Assembly (NCBI GenBank): GCA_035299545.1
Contig: DATGWJ010000021.1
Span: forward strand, 10,090-74,089
DNA: 64,000 bases
Reading direction: 5' to 3'
Source: Minisyncoccota bacterium
GTDB taxonomy: Bacteria > Patescibacteriota > Minisyncoccia > Phycocordibacterales > UBA9973
Both the position numbers and the translations under genes were made by a program. The notes beneath the pieces are model-generated. The model was not told the origin of the DNA. It did not search any database and saw only the letters and a program-made list of their open reading frames with translations. Below, one piece after another: positions 19,908 to 48,635 of this stretch. The first letter of the stretch is position 1; each line of letters opens with the position of its first letter.

Positions 19908-19980
19908 TGCGCGATACAGGATTCGAACCTGTGACATCGTCAACGTCAATGACGCGCTCTACCAACTGAGCTAACCGCGC
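19908..19980 (-). tRNA. tRNA-Val (anticodon GAC)
   Basis: Folded by hand: acceptor GCGCGGT/ATCGCGC, D arm GCTC/GAGC, anticodon loop TTGACGT, T arm ACAGG-TTCGAAT-CCTGT. Confidence 0.85.
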
Positions 19981-19988
19981 AAATTTTG

Positions 19989-20075
19989 CGGAAGCGGTGA
20001 GATTTGAACTCACGATACGGTCTCCCGTATGCCGCTTTTCGAAAGCGGTGCCTTCAACCGCTCAGCCACGCTTCC
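19989..20075 (-). tRNA. tRNA-Ser (anticodon CGA), long variable arm
   Basis: Acceptor GGAAGCG/CGCTTCC, anticodon loop TTCGAAA, variable stem ATACGG/CCGTAT, T arm GTGAG-TTCAAAT-CTCAC. Confidence 0.85.
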
Positions 20076-25481: not shown

Positions 25482-25553
25482 TGACCCTACCGGGAATCGA
25501 ACCCGGATTACCGGCTTGAAAAGCCGATGTCCTAACCGTTAGACGATAGGGCC
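25482..25553 (-). tRNA. tRNA-Glu (anticodon UUC)
   Basis: Aligns position by position to E. coli tRNA-Glu: GGCCCUAUCGUCUAACGGUUAGGACAUCGGCUUUUCAAGCCGGUAAUCCGGGUUCGAUUCCCGGUAGGGUCA. Confidence 0.85.
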
Positions 25554-41833: not shown

Positions 41834-42724
41834 ATGTGGTATAATATAATTGTGAAAAAAATATTAAAATTTTTAAAAATCTTTTTCCTTATTTTATATT
41901 TAATTGTAATCTTTTTATTAATGCTTAAAAGCAAACAGTTGAACAGTGATTACAATCTGCCTGTCTGGCTTATTCCTAGTTTATTTTTTATTAGTATTTT
42001 TTATTTCTGTTATGAATATATAATACTCAAGATAAAAGATGATAAATTAGAAGATGAGATAATCTCCATTGTAAACCACGCATTCCGTACTCCTATTACA
42101 AGTATTATTTGGCATGTAAAAGAACTAGAAAAAAACATTCCCCAAAATGAGAAACTTCTATACTTACAAAATATCAATAACGGAGCAAATCGAATCTTAA
42201 ATGTTGTTGATTCTCTAGTTGGAATAAAAGATGTACAAAATACTTCTGGATACTTTTTTGAAGCTGTCTCGATGAGAGAAATTATTGAAGACTCGATAAA
42301 TAGACACAGAGGTCAAATAAATAAAAAGAATATAGATTTTAGAATACCTACTTTTAAAGATATTCCCCTTCTAACTGTTGATTTGAAGAAAATTTCATTC
42401 GTAATTGATACGCTTATAGAAAATGCTATTTATTACACAAAGAAGGACGGGAAAATATTAATAGATTCTATTTATGATTTTAAAAAACTTGTATTATTTG
42501 TAAGTGATACGGGTATTGGACTAGGAATGATAGATAAACTAAGGATATTTTCAAAGTTTTATCGTAGTGAAAAAGCTAAATTAATGAACCCTGATGGTAT
42601 GGGTTTAAGATTGTATATATCTAGAGAGATCATTAAAAGGCATGGTGGTAAAATATATGCTAAATCGAATGGTCCAGATGAAGGTACTACTTTTTTCATA
42701 GAAATACCATTCAAGAAGAAATAA
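41834..42724 (+). CDS. sensor histidine kinase (two N-terminal TM helices)
   Basis: H-box HAFRTPITSI; ATPase G-box GMGLRLYISREIIKRHGG. No response-regulator partner in the window. Confidence 0.75.
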   Translation: MWYNIIVKKILKFLKIFFLILYLIVIFLLMLKSKQLNSDYNLPVWLIPSLFFISIFYFCYEYIILKIKDDKLEDEIISIVNHAFRTPITSIIWHVKELEKNIPQNEKLLYLQNINNGANRILNVVDSLVGIKDVQNTSGYFFEAVSMREIIEDSINRHRGQINKKNIDFRIPTFKDIPLLTVDLKKISFVIDTLIENAIYYTKKDGKILIDSIYDFKKLVLFVSDTGIGLGMIDKLRIFSKFYRSEKAKLMNPDGMGLRLYISREIIKRHGGKIYAKSNGPDEGTTFFIEIPFKKK

Positions 42725-42775
42725 TAAAACATTCCAACATTCTTAAGAATGTTGGAATGTTTTATTATTAGTATT

Positions 42776-43150
42776 TTATTTTTTAGAAATTATCTCTTCT
42801 ATCTTTTTTATATCTTCACCTATTTCAGAAATTGTAGCTCTTTCTTCTTGTATTTCTTTTTCTGTCTTTTCATCTATCCTTTTCTCTTTATTTAATCCAG
42901 AAATAATAATATTTTCTCCAATAAAGAAAGAAACAAATAACCCTGTTATCATAGTTATAAGTACTCCTATGATTAACGATGCCCACCCTGACATATTCCA
43001 GCTATCAGAAATATGCCAAATTCCCCGCCAAATTGAAACTATACCAATACTCCCAATAAAAGCATATACCAAAGGGAAATGAGTTAATTTTGTTCGTATT
43101 TTATCTTCTAGTTTATCAAAAAAGTTATACAAGTTTCTTATTATTTTCAT
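42776..43150 (-). CDS. hypothetical membrane protein
   Basis: Two TM helices and a charged C-terminal coil. Confidence 0.4.
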   Translation of the reverse strand: MKIIRNLYNFFDKLEDKIRTKLTHFPLVYAFIGSIGIVSIWRGIWHISDSWNMSGWASLIIGVLITMITGLFVSFFIGENIIISGLNKEKRIDEKTEKEIQEERATISEIGEDIKKIEEIISKK

Positions 43151-43169
43151 ATTATATAAAGCTATTCTA

Positions 43170-44666
43170 TCATTTAAAAATAATAATTCCTAATATACCA
43201 ATGAGAAGAAGACAAGTAATACAAGGAATAATTACTCCTTTAAATATATGGGTCTCAAAATTTTTAACCCCAGCGACTGCTTCTGCCGCAAGAATATCTG
43301 AGAGTGCAAGCATATTACCAGTAGCTGCTCCAACAACTCCCAATGACATTATCACTTCAGGATTAAAATTGAGATTTGTAGCAGCAACATAGAAAAAGTT
43401 ACCAAACATAATATTTGATATAGTTACACTTCCTGTAATGAAAGAACCAAAAGCTCCTATAAATGGAGCGAATAGCGGCAATAGTGATGTCTCAAATGCT
43501 TTAGAGATAAGAGTTATAGCTGGAGGTAAGCCAGATAAATTATTACCTGACAAAATCATTATTTGAACTATTGCTGACATTGAAACAATAACAATAAATG
43601 GTCCAATAGTTCCCTTTAGAGAAATAAAAGATGCTTTTCTTAAAAATCTTAAACCACTTCTCCAAAACAAAATCACAATTAAACCAGTTACTATAAAAAT
43701 AAAACCAGGATTAAATAAGTTAAATGTATGAATAAAACCAAAATTTACCATAATTCCCCATCTATCCAAGATAATTTTTCCAAAAATCAAGAGTGCTACT
43801 AATAAACCATAAGGTAGAAAAGCTTTGAGTGGACTCATTGTGTGGGCAAGATGTTCTTCTTTTTTAACTGTAATAGTATTCTTAGGGACAAAAATTCCTA
43901 ATTTAGTAGTAATAATAACTAATGCTAACCCTGCTACAGATCCTAATATAGTGGGAAATTCTTGTCCTAAAGACACAAATAATATTGACGGTAAAGAAAA
44001 AACAATACCAGACCAAATAGCAAAAGGTAACCCTTCAAAAAATTCTTTTTTTCTATTTGGTCTACCTTTTGTAATTATCCAAAGCATAAAAACCGGAACA
44101 ATTATTCCCACAAGATTTAACATTGAGGATATAAAAGGAACAGAAGAAGTTGGTAACCCTGCTAAACCTACTCTTATAGGCGTCCCAGCGGCACCAAAGA
44201 CTCCAGGAGCACTATTCCCTAATAATCCTATTATTAAAGCTCTTAGAGGTGTTAAACCGAGCCCCATAAGAAGAGGTACAGCGACAGCAGCAGGTACACC
44301 GAACCCTGCTGTCCCTTCAAGGAGTGCTTCAAATAACCAAGCAATAACTATAATTTGAATTCTATAATCTTTTGAGAAACTTTCTAAATAATATGAAATA
44401 TTTTTTATGATTTTTAAATCTTTTAATATTTCAAGAAAAAATATGGCTCCAAAAATAATAAAGAAAATATCAATAGCGATAAAGAATCCTTTACCATATG
44501 AAGTATATAAAAATGAAGGCATAATCTTCCAGTAAACAACCGCTAGTACTGTATAAAACAGCAGAGTTATTATAGAAGCCACAAGTAATGATGTTTTCTT
44601 ACTAAATAACAAGAATAAGAAAACAAGGAAAGGAAGTATCGATATAAAAATTGGAATATTATTCAT
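43170..44666 (-). CDS. lctP: L-lactate permease (LctP family)
   Basis: LEGTAGFGVPAAVAVPLLMGLGLTPL...GNSAPGVFGAAGTPI matches the LldP family core. Confidence 0.75.
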   Translation of the reverse strand: MNNIPIFISILPFLVFLFLLFSKKTSLLVASIITLLFYTVLAVVYWKIMPSFLYTSYGKGFFIAIDIFFIIFGAIFFLEILKDLKIIKNISYYLESFSKDYRIQIIVIAWLFEALLEGTAGFGVPAAVAVPLLMGLGLTPLRALIIGLLGNSAPGVFGAAGTPIRVGLAGLPTSSVPFISSMLNLVGIIVPVFMLWIITKGRPNRKKEFFEGLPFAIWSGIVFSLPSILFVSLGQEFPTILGSVAGLALVIITTKLGIFVPKNTITVKKEEHLAHTMSPLKAFLPYGLLVALLIFGKIILDRWGIMVNFGFIHTFNLFNPGFIFIVTGLIVILFWRSGLRFLRKASFISLKGTIGPFIVIVSMSAIVQIMILSGNNLSGLPPAITLISKAFETSLLPLFAPFIGAFGSFITGSVTISNIMFGNFFYVAATNLNFNPEVIMSLGVVGAATGNMLALSDILAAEAVAGVKNFETHIFKGVIIPCITCLLLIGILGIIIFK

Positions 44667-44668
44667 AT

Positions 44669-47600
44669 TTATGGAGTTACGAGAACTCGTCCAGTAGGAC
44701 TTGGTGTAGTCCCTCTAGGAATACTTGTTGCGTTATTATTGTAATTATAAATAACAAAATCATCATATGCCCACCAGCCGTCTCTCCAAGGAGCCGTACC
44801 ACTCCCACCAAGGAAATTCGCAAAATTAATTTTAGTTATGCGAACATCACTATAATCCCTAAATCTATAGTTAGGTATACTGGAAACTAATTTACCATTA
44901 ACAAAATATTCAAGAAGTCCGTTACTTGACCCTGGGGTATTTAATACAAGTCTCACAGTAATATCGTACCAAGTATTAGGACTAAAATAATAATTAATCG
45001 ATTCTGAATTACCCCAGCAATTAGGATCTGGAGACGGACAAGTCATACCAAGATGATTAACATAGAACTTTGTTTGAAGTTTGTCGTTTGTTGAAGTTTT
45101 ACCACTATCAAACATAGTAAGTATAAAAAATGATTTCATATCTGGGGTTGGTTTATATCCTGCGCCAGGCCAACTATTCATATTGGTATAAAAACCAAGC
45201 CCAAACTTTCCAGAAAGCCAGTGAGATGGATAACTTGACCCCGATGTACTAGCTGCGTATTCTGTTGCCATATTTTCTGAAAACTTCATCCTATAACTTA
45301 CATAAATTTCTTCTTGGTTTTGATTAGGTAAATTCATATACCAATCTAATCCACCAGCGGCAAGACTAAACCCATTAGAACCATTTAGTAAATCTTTATA
45401 GAAATAATTTTTCATAATTTTATTTCCGGATTCATCCTCTATCACAACTTTTTGAGTAGACCTATTCGCTCCTCCTGCATCATTCCAATCAGAAGCAATT
45501 TGACTACTCGTATATGTTCCTGGACTTCTATGTTGAAAATCTTGTTTAAAATAAATATTGAAAATATCAGACGTTGTACCACTGTTATTAATCAACTCAT
45601 AATACTTTTGTGCCCATTGTTCATACCCAGTAGAGTTTGGGTGAACTCCATCAGAAGTTAAGGTTGGGCTTGTCTTCCATCCACAATCTGTGGTTTTTGT
45701 TCCAGAAGTATCGTGCCATAGTGTCCACAAATCGACTACGTTTAAGTCTGAATGTTGTGAATCAAAATTCTTAAGCCAAGCATTTTCTGTCTTCATCTTA
45801 TTACACAAAGTAGTGTTATTGTTTATGTTTTCATATGGTGGCATAGTTGTCATATAAATATTTGAAATACCTTTTTGTTTAGCTAAATTATATATTTGCT
45901 CATACCAATATGAATTATCAACACTACTTAATGCATTTACTCCACAAGTTACAAATAATGTTTCTGTTCCTGATAAAACTTTTGTCGATAATTGATTATA
46001 AACCTGAGCACAAGTATTCCCCGATACAGCATAATCACTAATACTGCTTTGAGATAACCCCATTTTAGAAATAAAATAGCTAGGCCAATCACTTGTTATA
46101 CTATCCGACATTGAATCACCTATTACAGCATAAGTAGTCCCTGTAGAAGGAGTAGAACACACCCCACAATTCACACTAGTACCACAGTTGTTTGCCTGAG
46201 TACCACATTTACCTGAACAAGTAGTAGATGTGGATTCTGGAGTACAGACAGGAGGAGTTGTCCCTCCAAAGTAAGTATAAATTTGAGATACCTCACTTGA
46301 ACTTAAAGCTCTATTCCAAATCATTACTTCATCAATTGTACCCCTAAAGCTTCTTCCATTATAACCAATCTGAGAGATTGTAATAGCATCAGCTCCAGAG
46401 ACTGTAGCAGTTGATATTAAATTTCCATCTAAATAATAACTTAAAGAGTTTCCATTTCTTACAAGAACCACATGCCGGAGAGATGAAGTTCCTATAGCAG
46501 AATTATAAAATTCAAATTCTTGTCCATTTGTATTTGTTTCCATTCGTGGGTAGCCACTAGAAGTAAAGAAGATTCTTTGGTAATACCCATCGTCAGCTAA
46601 TACTAATCTATCATCAGAAAAATCTGTAGCTTTTACCCAGAAAGAGTATGTACCTACTGATTGAGTAATAGGTGAATTTAAAGTTATATAATCTGAATTA
46701 TCATTAAATAAATAACACTGTCCTTTTCTACAGTTTGTAGAAGTAGTAGTTGCTCCAGTAACAGTTCCATTATTTGTACCCACAGAATCATTTCCATTTC
46801 CATCAAGAGTCCACCAAGAAAGAAGACCAGACTGCCATGATGGAGTTACTGGTAAAACTGGTATAAGCGTGCAAGTGTCACCACTCTTTTGATACCCAGA
46901 GTTACAGGTAGATAAAGTGCAACTACCGTATGTGGACCAAGTACCTGAATTACAGGTTCGCGATTGAGTACCTGTACCATTAGTAATAGTGCAAGATTGA
47001 GTAGATGAACCGGAACAAGTAGTTGCTACACAAGCATTACCACTAATCTGATATCCAGAATTACAAGTAGATACTGTACAAGTACCGTAAGATGACCAAG
47101 TACCAGAATTACAGGTTCGTGATTGAGTACCTGTACCATTAGTAATAGTACAAGATTGAGTAGATGAACCGGAACAAGTAGTTGCTACACAAGCATTACC
47201 ACTAATCTGATATCCAGAATTACAAGTTGATACTGTGCAAGAGTTGTAATTTGACCAAACTCCAGAATTACAAGTTCGTGATTGAATGCCAGTACCATTT
47301 CCGATAGTACAAGATTGAGTGGATAGACCAGAACAAGTGGTTGCTACACAAGCACCCCCACTAATCTGATATCCAGAATTACATGTAGATACAATACAAG
47401 TGCCATATGATGACCAATTACCTTCATTACAACTTCGGTATTGATATCCTTGACCATTGTAAACAGTACAAGACCTCATAGATGAACCTGTGCAAATATG
47501 AGACGCTTCTTCTCCTTGGCTACAGAGAACTCCCGTGAGAGGACTATATTTAGTAGAATAAGTACAACCAGAAGGTAACGATTTAGGAGCATTAGAACAT

Positions 47601-48025
47601 AGTTCCCCTGTCATCGCATTATACTTTGCTCCAGGTAAACAACCAGGAGCGGTGTAAGTTGAGGTAGAAGTACTACCAGTGCTGGTGGTAGTGTTTGTAT
47701 TGGATGATGTATTTGTTGTAGTAGTTGCAGTGCCGGTCTGAGAAAATTCCAGCGCACTACGAGTAATAGGTCCTACCTTACCGTCTGGTACTAGACCACG
47801 ACTTTCTTGGAATGATTGGATAGCTTGTATTGATTTCTTTCCTATTACTCCGTCTACTACTAGATTGGGAGATGGGTTTAATACCCTATTTAGTACTACT
47901 TGTAGGTTAATACGTTCTTGGAGAGTATCGATTTTGGTGGGGAAAGAGACGGTGGAGGCAAAAGTAATAATAGGAATAATGAAAAATGAAATTACTCCTA
48001 ACTTGATTATATTTAGATTTTTCAT
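44669..48025 (-). CDS. large secreted multidomain surface protein (1118 aa)
   Basis: Signal peptide, then a PG-binding-1 domain (DGVIGKKSIQAIQSFQESRGLVPDGKVGPITRSAL). Thr/Ser-rich linker. Four tandem Cys-rich repeats of about 51 aa (CNSGxWSxYGxCTVSTCNSGYQISGxACVATTCSG). LamG/ConA-like lectin (EVMIWNRALSSSEVSQIY). SGNH/GDSL hydrolase (IGDSMSD...DGVHPN). Unknown C-terminal beta-rich domain. Confidence 0.7.
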   Translation of the reverse strand: MKNLNIIKLGVISFFIIPIITFASTVSFPTKIDTLQERINLQVVLNRVLNPSPNLVVDGVIGKKSIQAIQSFQESRGLVPDGKVGPITRSALEFSQTGTATTTTNTSSNTNTTTSTGSTSTSTYTAPGCLPGAKYNAMTGELCSNAPKSLPSGCTYSTKYSPLTGVLCSQGEEASHICTGSSMRSCTVYNGQGYQYRSCNEGNWSSYGTCIVSTCNSGYQISGGACVATTCSGLSTQSCTIGNGTGIQSRTCNSGVWSNYNSCTVSTCNSGYQISGNACVATTCSGSSTQSCTITNGTGTQSRTCNSGTWSSYGTCTVSTCNSGYQISGNACVATTCSGSSTQSCTITNGTGTQSRTCNSGTWSTYGSCTLSTCNSGYQKSGDTCTLIPVLPVTPSWQSGLLSWWTLDGNGNDSVGTNNGTVTGATTTSTNCRKGQCYLFNDNSDYITLNSPITQSVGTYSFWVKATDFSDDRLVLADDGYYQRIFFTSSGYPRMETNTNGQEFEFYNSAIGTSSLRHVVLVRNGNSLSYYLDGNLISTATVSGADAITISQIGYNGRSFRGTIDEVMIWNRALSSSEVSQIYTYFGGTTPPVCTPESTSTTCSGKCGTQANNCGTSVNCGVCSTPSTGTTYAVIGDSMSDSITSDWPSYFISKMGLSQSSISDYAVSGNTCAQVYNQLSTKVLSGTETLFVTCGVNALSSVDNSYWYEQIYNLAKQKGISNIYMTTMPPYENINNNTTLCNKMKTENAWLKNFDSQHSDLNVVDLWTLWHDTSGTKTTDCGWKTSPTLTSDGVHPNSTGYEQWAQKYYELINNSGTTSDIFNIYFKQDFQHRSPGTYTSSQIASDWNDAGGANRSTQKVVIEDESGNKIMKNYFYKDLLNGSNGFSLAAGGLDWYMNLPNQNQEEIYVSYRMKFSENMATEYAASTSGSSYPSHWLSGKFGLGFYTNMNSWPGAGYKPTPDMKSFFILTMFDSGKTSTNDKLQTKFYVNHLGMTCPSPDPNCWGNSESINYYFSPNTWYDITVRLVLNTPGSSNGLLEYFVNGKLVSSIPNYRFRDYSDVRITKINFANFLGGSGTAPWRDGWWAYDDFVIYNYNNNATSIPRGTTPSPTGRVLVTP
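46820..47460. repeat. four tandem DNA repeats of about 153 bp inside the surface-protein CDS (they encode the Cys-rich modules)
   Basis: Near-identical blocks ...GTACCATTAGTAATAGTRCAAGATTGAGTAGATGAACCGGAACAAGTAGTTGCTACACAAGCATTACCACTAATCTGATATCCAGAATTACAAGT... visible three times, plus one diverged copy. Confidence 0.75.
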
Positions 48026-48056
48026 TATTTAATTATACCAAGAAAAAAAACAAAAG

Positions 48057-48635
48057 TTAATGGGTTTTTAACCAACTAATCATTTTCTTGAAAGTGTTCA
48101 CTCCGGCTTCCCCATCAGCAGTTAAACCATTTGCTTTTTGATAGTTCTTCACAGCTGTCACAGTACTTGGACCGTAGTCATTATCTACTTTATTAGAAGT
48201 TTTATTATATAAGTTTAAGAATTTTTGTACTGTACCCACAGCAGGACCTTGTGATTTAAGTTTAAGATAAACATTGGCATCTACAAGCTTCTGTAATTCA
48301 TTTATGAGAGTTTGATTCTTTGAAACTGTAGGAGTTGTTGTAGTAGTTGGTGTAGTTGTAGGATTAACAACAGGTGCATTTGTATTAGAACCAGCAACAA
48401 CAGGTGCTTCTTCATTGCCCTTACCTTGTTCTATCTCTAATTGTAATAAACTAATTTGCCTCTTTAATTCAGTAACTTCTTTTTCAAGTTCTTCATTTGA
48501 ATCTTCTAAATCTTGTTGCTTCTGTGAATCCACATGAGTACTACCAGACTCCATTGTAGTGAAAGCCCAATACCCCGCGAACCCTATTAAACCTAAAATA
48601 AATATCGAAAAGATAAAAAATTTAAAATTCTCCAT
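48057..48635 (-). CDS. membrane-anchored peptidoglycan-binding-domain protein with a coiled coil
   Basis: C-terminal PG-binding-1 motif GPAVGTVQKFLNLY...DYGPSTVTAVKNYQKANGLTADGEAG. Confidence 0.6.
   Translation of the reverse strand: MENFKFFIFSIFILGLIGFAGYWAFTTMESGSTHVDSQKQQDLEDSNEELEKEVTELKRQISLLQLEIEQGKGNEEAPVVAGSNTNAPVVNPTTTPTTTTTPTVSKNQTLINELQKLVDANVYLKLKSQGPAVGTVQKFLNLYNKTSNKVDNDYGPSTVTAVKNYQKANGLTADGEAGVNTFKKMISWLKTH

Follow-up and report, generated by a model that had tools for sequence, protein, structure and literature searches.

The stretch of DNA analyzed here, 64,000 nucleotides (nt) of a Minisyncoccota bacterium (assembly GCA_035299545.1, contig DATGWJ010000021.1, positions 10,090 to 74,089) and hereafter called the window, carries on its reverse strand a gene for a predicted protein of 1118 amino acids (aa). 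The gene lies between a short gene for a 192-aa peptidoglycan-binding protein and an L-lactate permease gene, and it is the largest open reading frame (ORF) in the window, the runner-up encoding 815 aa; both its rank and its description as a secreted mosaic surface protein had been given in an earlier, sequence-only reading, and profile and structure searches upheld that description and all of the named domain calls. As shown in Table 1, the first half of the protein comprises a signal peptide, a PG_binding_1 domain, a serine/threonine (S/T)-rich linker, two Cys loops, and four 53-aa modules, while the second half comprises a Laminin_G_3 domain, a Cys-rich linker, an SGNH esterase domain, and a beta-jelly roll like that of polysaccharide lyase (PL) families PL14 and PL36; every domain is complete. 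We consider it moderately probable that the product is a Sec-exported, wall-tethered modular carbohydrate-active enzyme (CAZyme) of a tiny-genome Paceibacteria bacterium within the candidate phyla radiation (CPR).

Table 1. Features of the 1118-aa gene and its surroundings (window coordinates)
Feature	Protein position	Coordinates	Strand	Basis
1118-aa ORF		44669..48025	-	Translation of open frame
Probable Sec signal peptide	aa 1-23	47957..48025	-	Read by eye from translation
PG_binding_1	aa 36-92	47750..47920	-	Pfam PF01471
S/T-rich linker	aa 96-127 (about)	47645..47740	-	Composition
Two short Cys loops	aa 129-143 and 154-168	47522..47641	-	Motif C-x2-G-x2-[YF]-[NS]-x2-TG-x2-C
Four tandem 53-aa (159-bp) modules, six Cys each	aa 178-389	46859..47494	-	Cys spacing
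LamG/concanavalin-A-like lectin domain	about aa 396-590	46256..46840	-	Pfam PF13385 (envelope aa 442-580)
Cys-rich linker CTPESTSTTCSGKCGTQANNCGTSVNCGVC	aa 594-623	46157..46246	-	Motif, between LamG and SGNH
SGNH (GDSL) esterase domain	aa 632-812	45590..46132	-	Pfam PF00657/PF13472
PL14/PL36-like beta-jelly-roll polysaccharide-lyase domain	aa 816-1118	44672..45580	-	PF21294, profile, Foldseek
192-aa gene, upstream (transmembrane anchor, coiled coil, P/T linker, PG_binding_1)		48057..48635	-	Pfam PF01471
L-lactate permease gene, downstream		43170..44666	-	Pfam PF02652, E = 3.6e-69
Promoter-like site TTAACT-17-TGgTATAAT, ending 6 nt before ATG		48032..48060	-	Consensus scan and direct reading

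The frame is unbroken over 3357 nt of DNA with 34% G+C, which, together with several independent profile matches, is far beyond chance. A search for full-length homologues of the protein returned 73 matches, which were almost wholly due to the Cys repeat and PG-binding domain and of which none spanned more than 34% of the query, and an exact-sequence look-up returned no identical record. When the SGNH and lyase half was used for pattern scans, no relative was found among GTDB genomes, and JGI metagenomes yielded one match only, with 45% identity and to the SGNH part alone. By these comparisons the specific architecture is new, with no full-length orthologue in the databases searched, while its recognizable domains all come from known families and such surface proteins are already known in Paceibacteria. 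The G+C content of all segments of the gene, overall (GC) and at third codon positions (GC3), lay within the range of the neighboring genes; there is thus no sign of a recent foreign origin, and recent horizontal acquisition was rejected. A phage origin of the SGNH-lyase half was also considered and rejected, as only a 26%-identical SGNH match, to two Vibrio phages, was found.

The beta-rich C-terminus, which had been listed as an unknown domain, is indeed beta-rich but can be placed in the PL14/PL36 lyase superfamily. Polysacc_lyase_14 (PF21294) matched aa 1011-1077 (E = 1.9e-9, 38 bits versus a cutoff of 27). With a profile built from five sequences over the final 303 residues (alignment A1), 4648 cluster representatives were retrieved at E ≤ 1e-3, and all eight of the homologues tested matched PF21294 over most of the model, with E down to 1e-86. 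Against the PDB, the same profile detected Aly36B of PL36 (E = 5.8e-12) and AkAly30 of PL14 (E = 8.9e-11); the single C-terminal sequence found nothing there, so that the solved lyases came to light only through the five-sequence profile. We further modeled aa 625-1118 with AlphaFold2 (predicted local distance difference test [pLDDT], 73.4) and considered the best 50 of 110 Foldseek matches at E ≤ 0.001. The C-terminal part of the model matched Aly36B (6kcv, 1.3e-14), AkAly30 (5gmt, 8.2e-12), and Chlorella virus vAL-1 (3a0n, 2.5e-11), with 2zzj and a PL20 glucuronan lyase also among the best matches. Taken together, profile and model comparisons identify the domain as a PL14/PL36-type polysaccharide-lyase beta-jelly roll.

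Active-site residues were mapped by aligning 157 family members with the aligned segments of 5GMT and 6KCW. The Lys of the GGK(L)PG motif (K99 in AkAly30, K143 in Aly36B) occurs in 156 of the 157 members and corresponds to K940 of the query, where it follows a 14-aa insertion; the first Tyr of Y-x-Y (Y140 in AkAly30, Y185 in Aly36B), present in 153 members, corresponds to Y988. The query domain thus has the beta-jelly roll, the PF21294 match, and the K99 and Y140 equivalents in common with PL14 lyases such as vAL-1 (3GNE/3A0N) and Aplysia AkAly30 (5GMT). It differs from them in the insertion before the Lys motif, in an identity of only 13 to 15% in structural alignments, and in its setting, as part of a multidomain surface protein of a bacterium, where it is joined directly to an SGNH esterase. 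Aly36B (6KCW/6KCV), the best match by both profile and Foldseek, is a single-domain Chitinophaga enzyme with 18 to 19% identity to the query, a level at which substrate specificity is not transferable.

The SGNH domain immediately upstream is supported by Lipase_GDSL (PF00657, aa 634-806, E = 1.5e-5, 25.7 bits versus a cutoff of 23.6) and by Lipase_GDSL_2 (PF13472, aa 635-802, E = 3.8e-7), the latter slightly under its cutoff (31.2 versus 32.9 bits). All catalytic blocks are present: G636-D637-S638 (block I), G669 (II), G695-x-N697 (III), and D792-x-x-H795 (V), and S638, G669, N697, D792, and H795 are kept in every homologue covering those positions. The earlier assignment to the SGNH (GDSL) esterases therefore stands, and the domain, with its catalytic residues intact, is a predicted esterase. 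The best Foldseek matches of this part were sialate O-acetylesterases, the acetylxylan esterase PbeAcXE, and the phage phi24B esterase. Compared with SGNH O-acetylesterases (the Bacteroides/Phocaeicola sialate O-acetylesterase, 6NJC/7PZG; PbeAcXE, 7TOH; and the phi24B esterase, 6YP6), the query shares the fold and the Ser-Gly-Asn-His blocks at 16 to 19% identity; the single-domain esterases gave target-normalized TM-scores of 0.66 to 0.73 over about 195 to 210 alignment columns, and PbeAcXE gave lower ones (0.35 to 0.38). Unlike these enzymes, the query esterase forms the N-terminal half of an esterase-lyase didomain.

This pairing recurs. A search with aa 631-1118 identified three proteins, P0074 (57% identity), P0076, and P0077, that cover 95 to 98% of the query region and all carry SGNH and PF21294. 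An SGNH domain directly followed by a PL14-like domain was present in seven proteins altogether (the query, P0074, P0076, P0077, P0090, P0094, and P0116), whose remaining domains vary and include pilin-like N-termini, CUB, and an apiosidase with a collagen-binding-like domain. Thus, it is the lyase domain, not PG_binding_1, that goes along with the SGNH domain, and the recurrence of the fusion in varied contexts argues for functional coupling. The SGNH-PL14-like pair is a conserved didomain, newly recognized here. The closest SGNH-lyase homologues, P0074 (L027:3413-5949), P0077 (L028:6001-8223), P0082, and P0076 (L029), start with K-(G/A)↓Q and then a hydrophobic helix. This is a pilin-type (class III) signal of archaea, and in P0074 it lies upstream of the called start codon. 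Next to the didomain gene in L028 are a T2SSE-type ATPase gene and six ORFs of 150 to 190 aa, and L029 carries an archaeal threonyl-tRNA synthetase editing domain. Because of the pilin-type signals, the ATPase and small ORFs of L028, and the editing domain of L029, the data suggest that the didomain is common to CPR bacteria and probable archaea of the DPANN group (Diapherotrites, Parvarchaeota, Aenigmarchaeota, Nanoarchaeota, and Nanohaloarchaeota), with up to 57% identity.

Two further relatives follow, by their predicted domains, the same anchor-stalk-lyase logic as the query. P0004 consists of a PG-binding domain, Cys loops, LamG, three Cys modules, and a PF14099 lyase-like domain, and P0215 of a PG-binding domain, a Cys module, and a PL14-like domain. 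The DNA of P0004 is 72 to 74% identical to that of the query in the N-terminus and repeats (72% for the PG-binding region), but the domain order differs, which points to domain shuffling.

The N-terminal half looks like that of an exported, anchored protein. The probable Sec signal peptide reads MKNLNIIK, then LGVISFFIIPIITF with a hydrophobic 14-residue core, then a putative cleavage site in TFA↓ST. PG_binding_1, which had been called from the sequence, scored above the cutoff (E = 2.6e-8, 34.4 bits versus 23) over profile positions 3-57 of 57. NCBIfam gave partial matches only, all to PG hydrolases and through this domain alone. In Paceibacterota homologues the domain is joined to many unrelated payloads (beta-helix, immunoglobulin [Ig]-like, F5/8 type C, and lyase) and thus behaves as a generic anchor. 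The S/T-rich stretch proposed from the sequence as a stalk was recovered, as a linker, by composition. Of the two Cys loops that follow, neither of which had a Pfam match, the first fits the motif expression in Table 1, which in 12 of the 73 homologues likewise detects a loop behind the PG-binding domain; the other query loop, CTYSTKYSPLTGVLC, does not fit the expression and was spotted by eye. The predicted LamG/concanavalin-A-type lectin was borne out by Laminin_G_3 (E = 2e-18, 67.4 bits versus a cutoff of 27.6, profile positions 2-151 of 151). The Cys-rich linker behind it, also without a Pfam match, reads CxPE(S/T)xxTCxGKCGxQxNNCGxS(V/I)xCGxC; in P0101, P0116, P0134, P0215, and P0229 this motif is found shortly before the PL14-like domain, and P0016 has it too.

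The four tandem Cys modules were confirmed as Cys-rich, but they are longer than the 51 aa (153 bp) first proposed, and their DNA is not near-identical as had been claimed. Tandem Repeats Finder returned a period of 159 nt with 3.8 copies and 81% matches. In pairwise comparison the units are 66 to 86% identical in DNA and differ at 8 to 19 synonymous codons per pair, and the longest exact run, shared by units 2 and 3, is 51 nt; all 24 Cys of the array are retained. Given this divergence, collapse or expansion in assembly is unlikely, and slippage is less likely than the sequence-only reading implied, which had described the repeats as prone to expansion and contraction; diverged units do not point to such hypervariability. 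A hidden Markov model built from the four units found 327 copies across the 73 homologues, at 1 to 15 per protein; among the matches that bear a name, the carriers are Paceibacterota, Falkowbacteria, the archaeal Nanobdellota and Woesearchaeota, and a few others. AlphaFold2 predicted two units, from a 56-row alignment, as an all-beta-hairpin architecture with a pLDDT of 92.8, and neither a Pfam model above noise nor a solved structure matched the module. EGF/cEGF, Sushi, and furin-type Cys-rich repeats are among the closest known systems. cEGF (PF12662) stayed below its 26.6-bit cutoff, with E = 0.011 for the whole protein and 0.59 for the repeat region alone, and the likeness is confined to the CNSGYxxSGxxC tail of the module. 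DUF7107 (PF23416) had no match to the query Cys modules at E ≤ 10, and in P0009 it matched aa 478-524, beyond the 53-aa units at aa 286-443. As modeled, the module is thus a confidently folded yet unclassified unit, new here and widespread in surface proteins of CPR bacteria and DPANN archaea.

The surroundings mark the gene as a variable element. The permease ATG lies 2 nt past the stop codon of the 1118-aa gene, as read directly at the junction, and no terminator-like site was found between them, the first being at 42723-42766, beyond the next small gene; the two genes are therefore probably cotranscribed. Permease orthologues with 54 to 67% identity occur in 24 metagenome-assembled genomes (MAGs) of Paceibacterota/Patescibacteria, by which synteny the source lineage is identified, and the adjacency of the permease is conserved with or without the 1118-aa gene. 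Synteny is intact on both flanks of the gene, and the slot around the permease, 42776-48635 of the window, varies between relatives. In locus L002 (1745-8353) this slot holds a histidine kinase gene and a gene for an 886-aa repeat-rich surface protein, while in L001 (1-6894) the permease is 73% identical and P0004 is encoded downstream of it; a partial gene of at least 759 aa upstream of the L001 permease was considered as an orthologue and rejected, its sequence being unrelated. By this comparison of loci, the 1118-aa gene is an accessory member of a domain-shuffled surface-protein family located in a variable slot.

The 192-aa neighbor does carry a PG-binding domain, as had been noted (aa 129-185, E = 5.8e-15), along with weak matches to coiled-coil families over aa 36-76, and its predicted build suggests a membrane-to-wall tether. 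The domain in common does not indicate a functional pair, however. In six MAG loci (L002, L011, L017, L019, L021, and L025) the 192-aa gene adjoins lactate-permease and/or DEAD-helicase genes, and the 1118-aa gene is absent from all six; the former is thus a conserved core gene rather than a dedicated partner.

How would such a protein work? PG_binding_1 would hold it noncovalently on peptidoglycan, most simply that of its own wall, and the linker and Cys modules would form a stiff stalk projecting the distal domains, a spacer role that the variable module number fits. LamG would dock onto glycan. The SGNH domain would then deacylate an acidic polysaccharide by removing O-acetyl (or other O-acyl) groups, candidate substrates being acetylated polyuronides (bacterial alginate or glucuronan) or host capsule or exopolysaccharide (EPS), after which the jelly-roll domain would bind the de-esterified chain and probably cleave it by beta-elimination. 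By doing so, the enzyme would serve to open up or remodel polysaccharide on the surface of a neighboring or host cell or in a biofilm matrix. O-acetyl groups on polyuronides such as bacterial alginate and rhizobial glucuronan hinder lyases; together with the recurrent fusion, this makes "deacetylate, then bind or cleave" the most economical reading. The sequence-only reading had left the choice between adhesin and enzyme open, and the conserved esterase-lyase didomain favors the enzyme side, since the protein resembles an enzyme that modifies or depolymerizes polysaccharide more than it does a simple adhesin. In Paceibacteria attached to methanogens, extracellular proteins with PG-binding domains are highly expressed and have been proposed to mediate host interaction (PMC10936435), and by analogy these fit the general picture. 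They come from the same organism class ("Ca. Yanofskyibacteriaceae"/Minisyncoccaceae) and likewise carry an N-terminal PG-binding domain on a large, secreted multidomain protein. Compared by description only, they have Ig-like, PKD, and galactose-binding domains, and the esterase-lyase payload and 53-aa Cys stalk of the query are not described among them.

Several observations weigh against this enzymatic interpretation, most of them at the lyase site. The second Tyr of Y-x-Y (Y142 in AkAly30), kept in 153 of the 157 family members, is N990 in the query, the sole Asn in that column. In the FSxRxMW motif, F967 and L969 stand in place of the Ser and Arg (S126 and R128 in AkAly30); the Ser position is variable in the family, and the Arg is found in 90 of 157 members. 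Compared with Aly36B, too, the query has Leu for the Arg of the LRMMW motif and Asn for the second Tyr. Lyase activity may thus be weakened, altered, or lost. Cip1, a structural neighbor of these lyases without convincing lyase activity (PMC3764139), is a precedent showing that a lyase-like fold is no guarantee of activity. Furthermore, the PF21294 match in the query spans only profile positions 134-200 of 215, the confidence of the model for aa 625-1118 is moderate only, and no uronate-catabolism genes were seen near the 1118-aa gene, where the sole transporter is the lactate permease. On the other hand, the Lys equivalent to K940 serves as both catalytic base and acid in Aly36B, according to the passage of PMC8618178 that cites Dong et al. 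2019, so that the core chemistry could survive in the query.

These substitutions are what an adhesin with a receptor-modifying esterase might be expected to carry: the protein would mainly attach the cell to a host glycan, its PL14-like domain would have lost lyase chemistry and serve as a carbohydrate-binding module like LamG, and the SGNH domain would edit O-acetyl groups as phage tailspike esterases do. We regard this account as possible but doubtful. Besides the Asn in place of the conserved Tyr and the missing Ser/Arg pair, it draws on the presence of two lectin-type jelly rolls in one chain, on Foldseek matches, at low TM-scores, to phage tail fiber and tailspike proteins with SGNH-type modules, and on the proposal that PG-binding proteins of Paceibacteria are attachment factors (PMC10936435). 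However, the invariant K940 and the first Tyr (Y988) are kept, the change to N990 needs a single nucleotide (TAT to AAT), and the closest subclade (P0074, P0075, and P0086) has F and L at the Ser and Arg positions as in the query yet keeps the Lys and both Tyr residues, which speaks for a functional variant and not for decay. A peptidoglycan-directed enzyme, with its own or host peptidoglycan as the substrate and the SGNH domain as an Ape-like esterase that removes O-acetyl groups to ready the wall for remodeling or lysis, appears to us improbable. PG_binding_1 is typical of wall-active enzymes, its NCBIfam matches are all to PG hydrolases, and the SGNH triad is intact, but the anchor is generic in the homologues, the SGNH domain partners the lyase domain instead, and the esterases among the best 50 of 110 structural matches are sialate and xylan acetylesterases, with no O-acetyl-PG esterase. 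Finally, the absence of any exact copy or full-length orthologue in the collections searched, the position in a variable slot, and the altered catalytic residue could all reflect misassembly of paralogous surface-protein genes, in the ORF or the repeat array, or a decaying pseudogene. Such an artifact is very improbable given the unbroken 34% G+C frame, the complete domains with 24 of 24 repeat Cys kept, repeat units different enough for unambiguous assembly, GC and GC3 like those of the neighbors, and intact synteny on both flanks.

A bolder form of the wall-tethered CAZyme reading, which we judge unlikely, is that of an episymbiont enzyme breaching the host surface on a stalk of an undescribed 53-aa six-Cys fold, with the stalk module and didomain exchanged between CPR bacteria and DPANN archaea. 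The PG-anchored stalk would present the esterase-lyase pair so that host capsule or EPS is deacetylated and cut at the contact site. Contact and material uptake by ultrasmall CPR bacteria are poorly understood, and few concrete surface enzymes have been pinned down; the 1118-aa gene offers a testable candidate that combines an anchor, a stalk, a lectin, and a didomain whose esterase site is intact and whose lyase site is partly noncanonical. The atypical N990 site is, on the alignment, among the new features of the protein. A new bifunctional CAZyme subgroup could be based on the conserved SGNH-PL14-like didomain; should the lyase domain of the query be inactive, it would instead exemplify the recruitment of a lyase fold for binding.

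As regards expression signals, the promoter-like site in Table 1 carries little weight, since the consensus scan found as many such sites in the region as chance would give. In 48026-48060, ahead of the ATG of the 1118-aa gene, we saw no Shine-Dalgarno sequence, and the transcript of the gene may be leaderless. The site at 42723-42766 is a perfect hairpin with a 20-bp stem between convergent genes for a 124-aa membrane protein and a histidine kinase and is probably a bidirectional terminator. Elsewhere in the window, three tRNA genes (19908-20075 and 25482-25553, minus strand) are the only Rfam matches at the gathering threshold.

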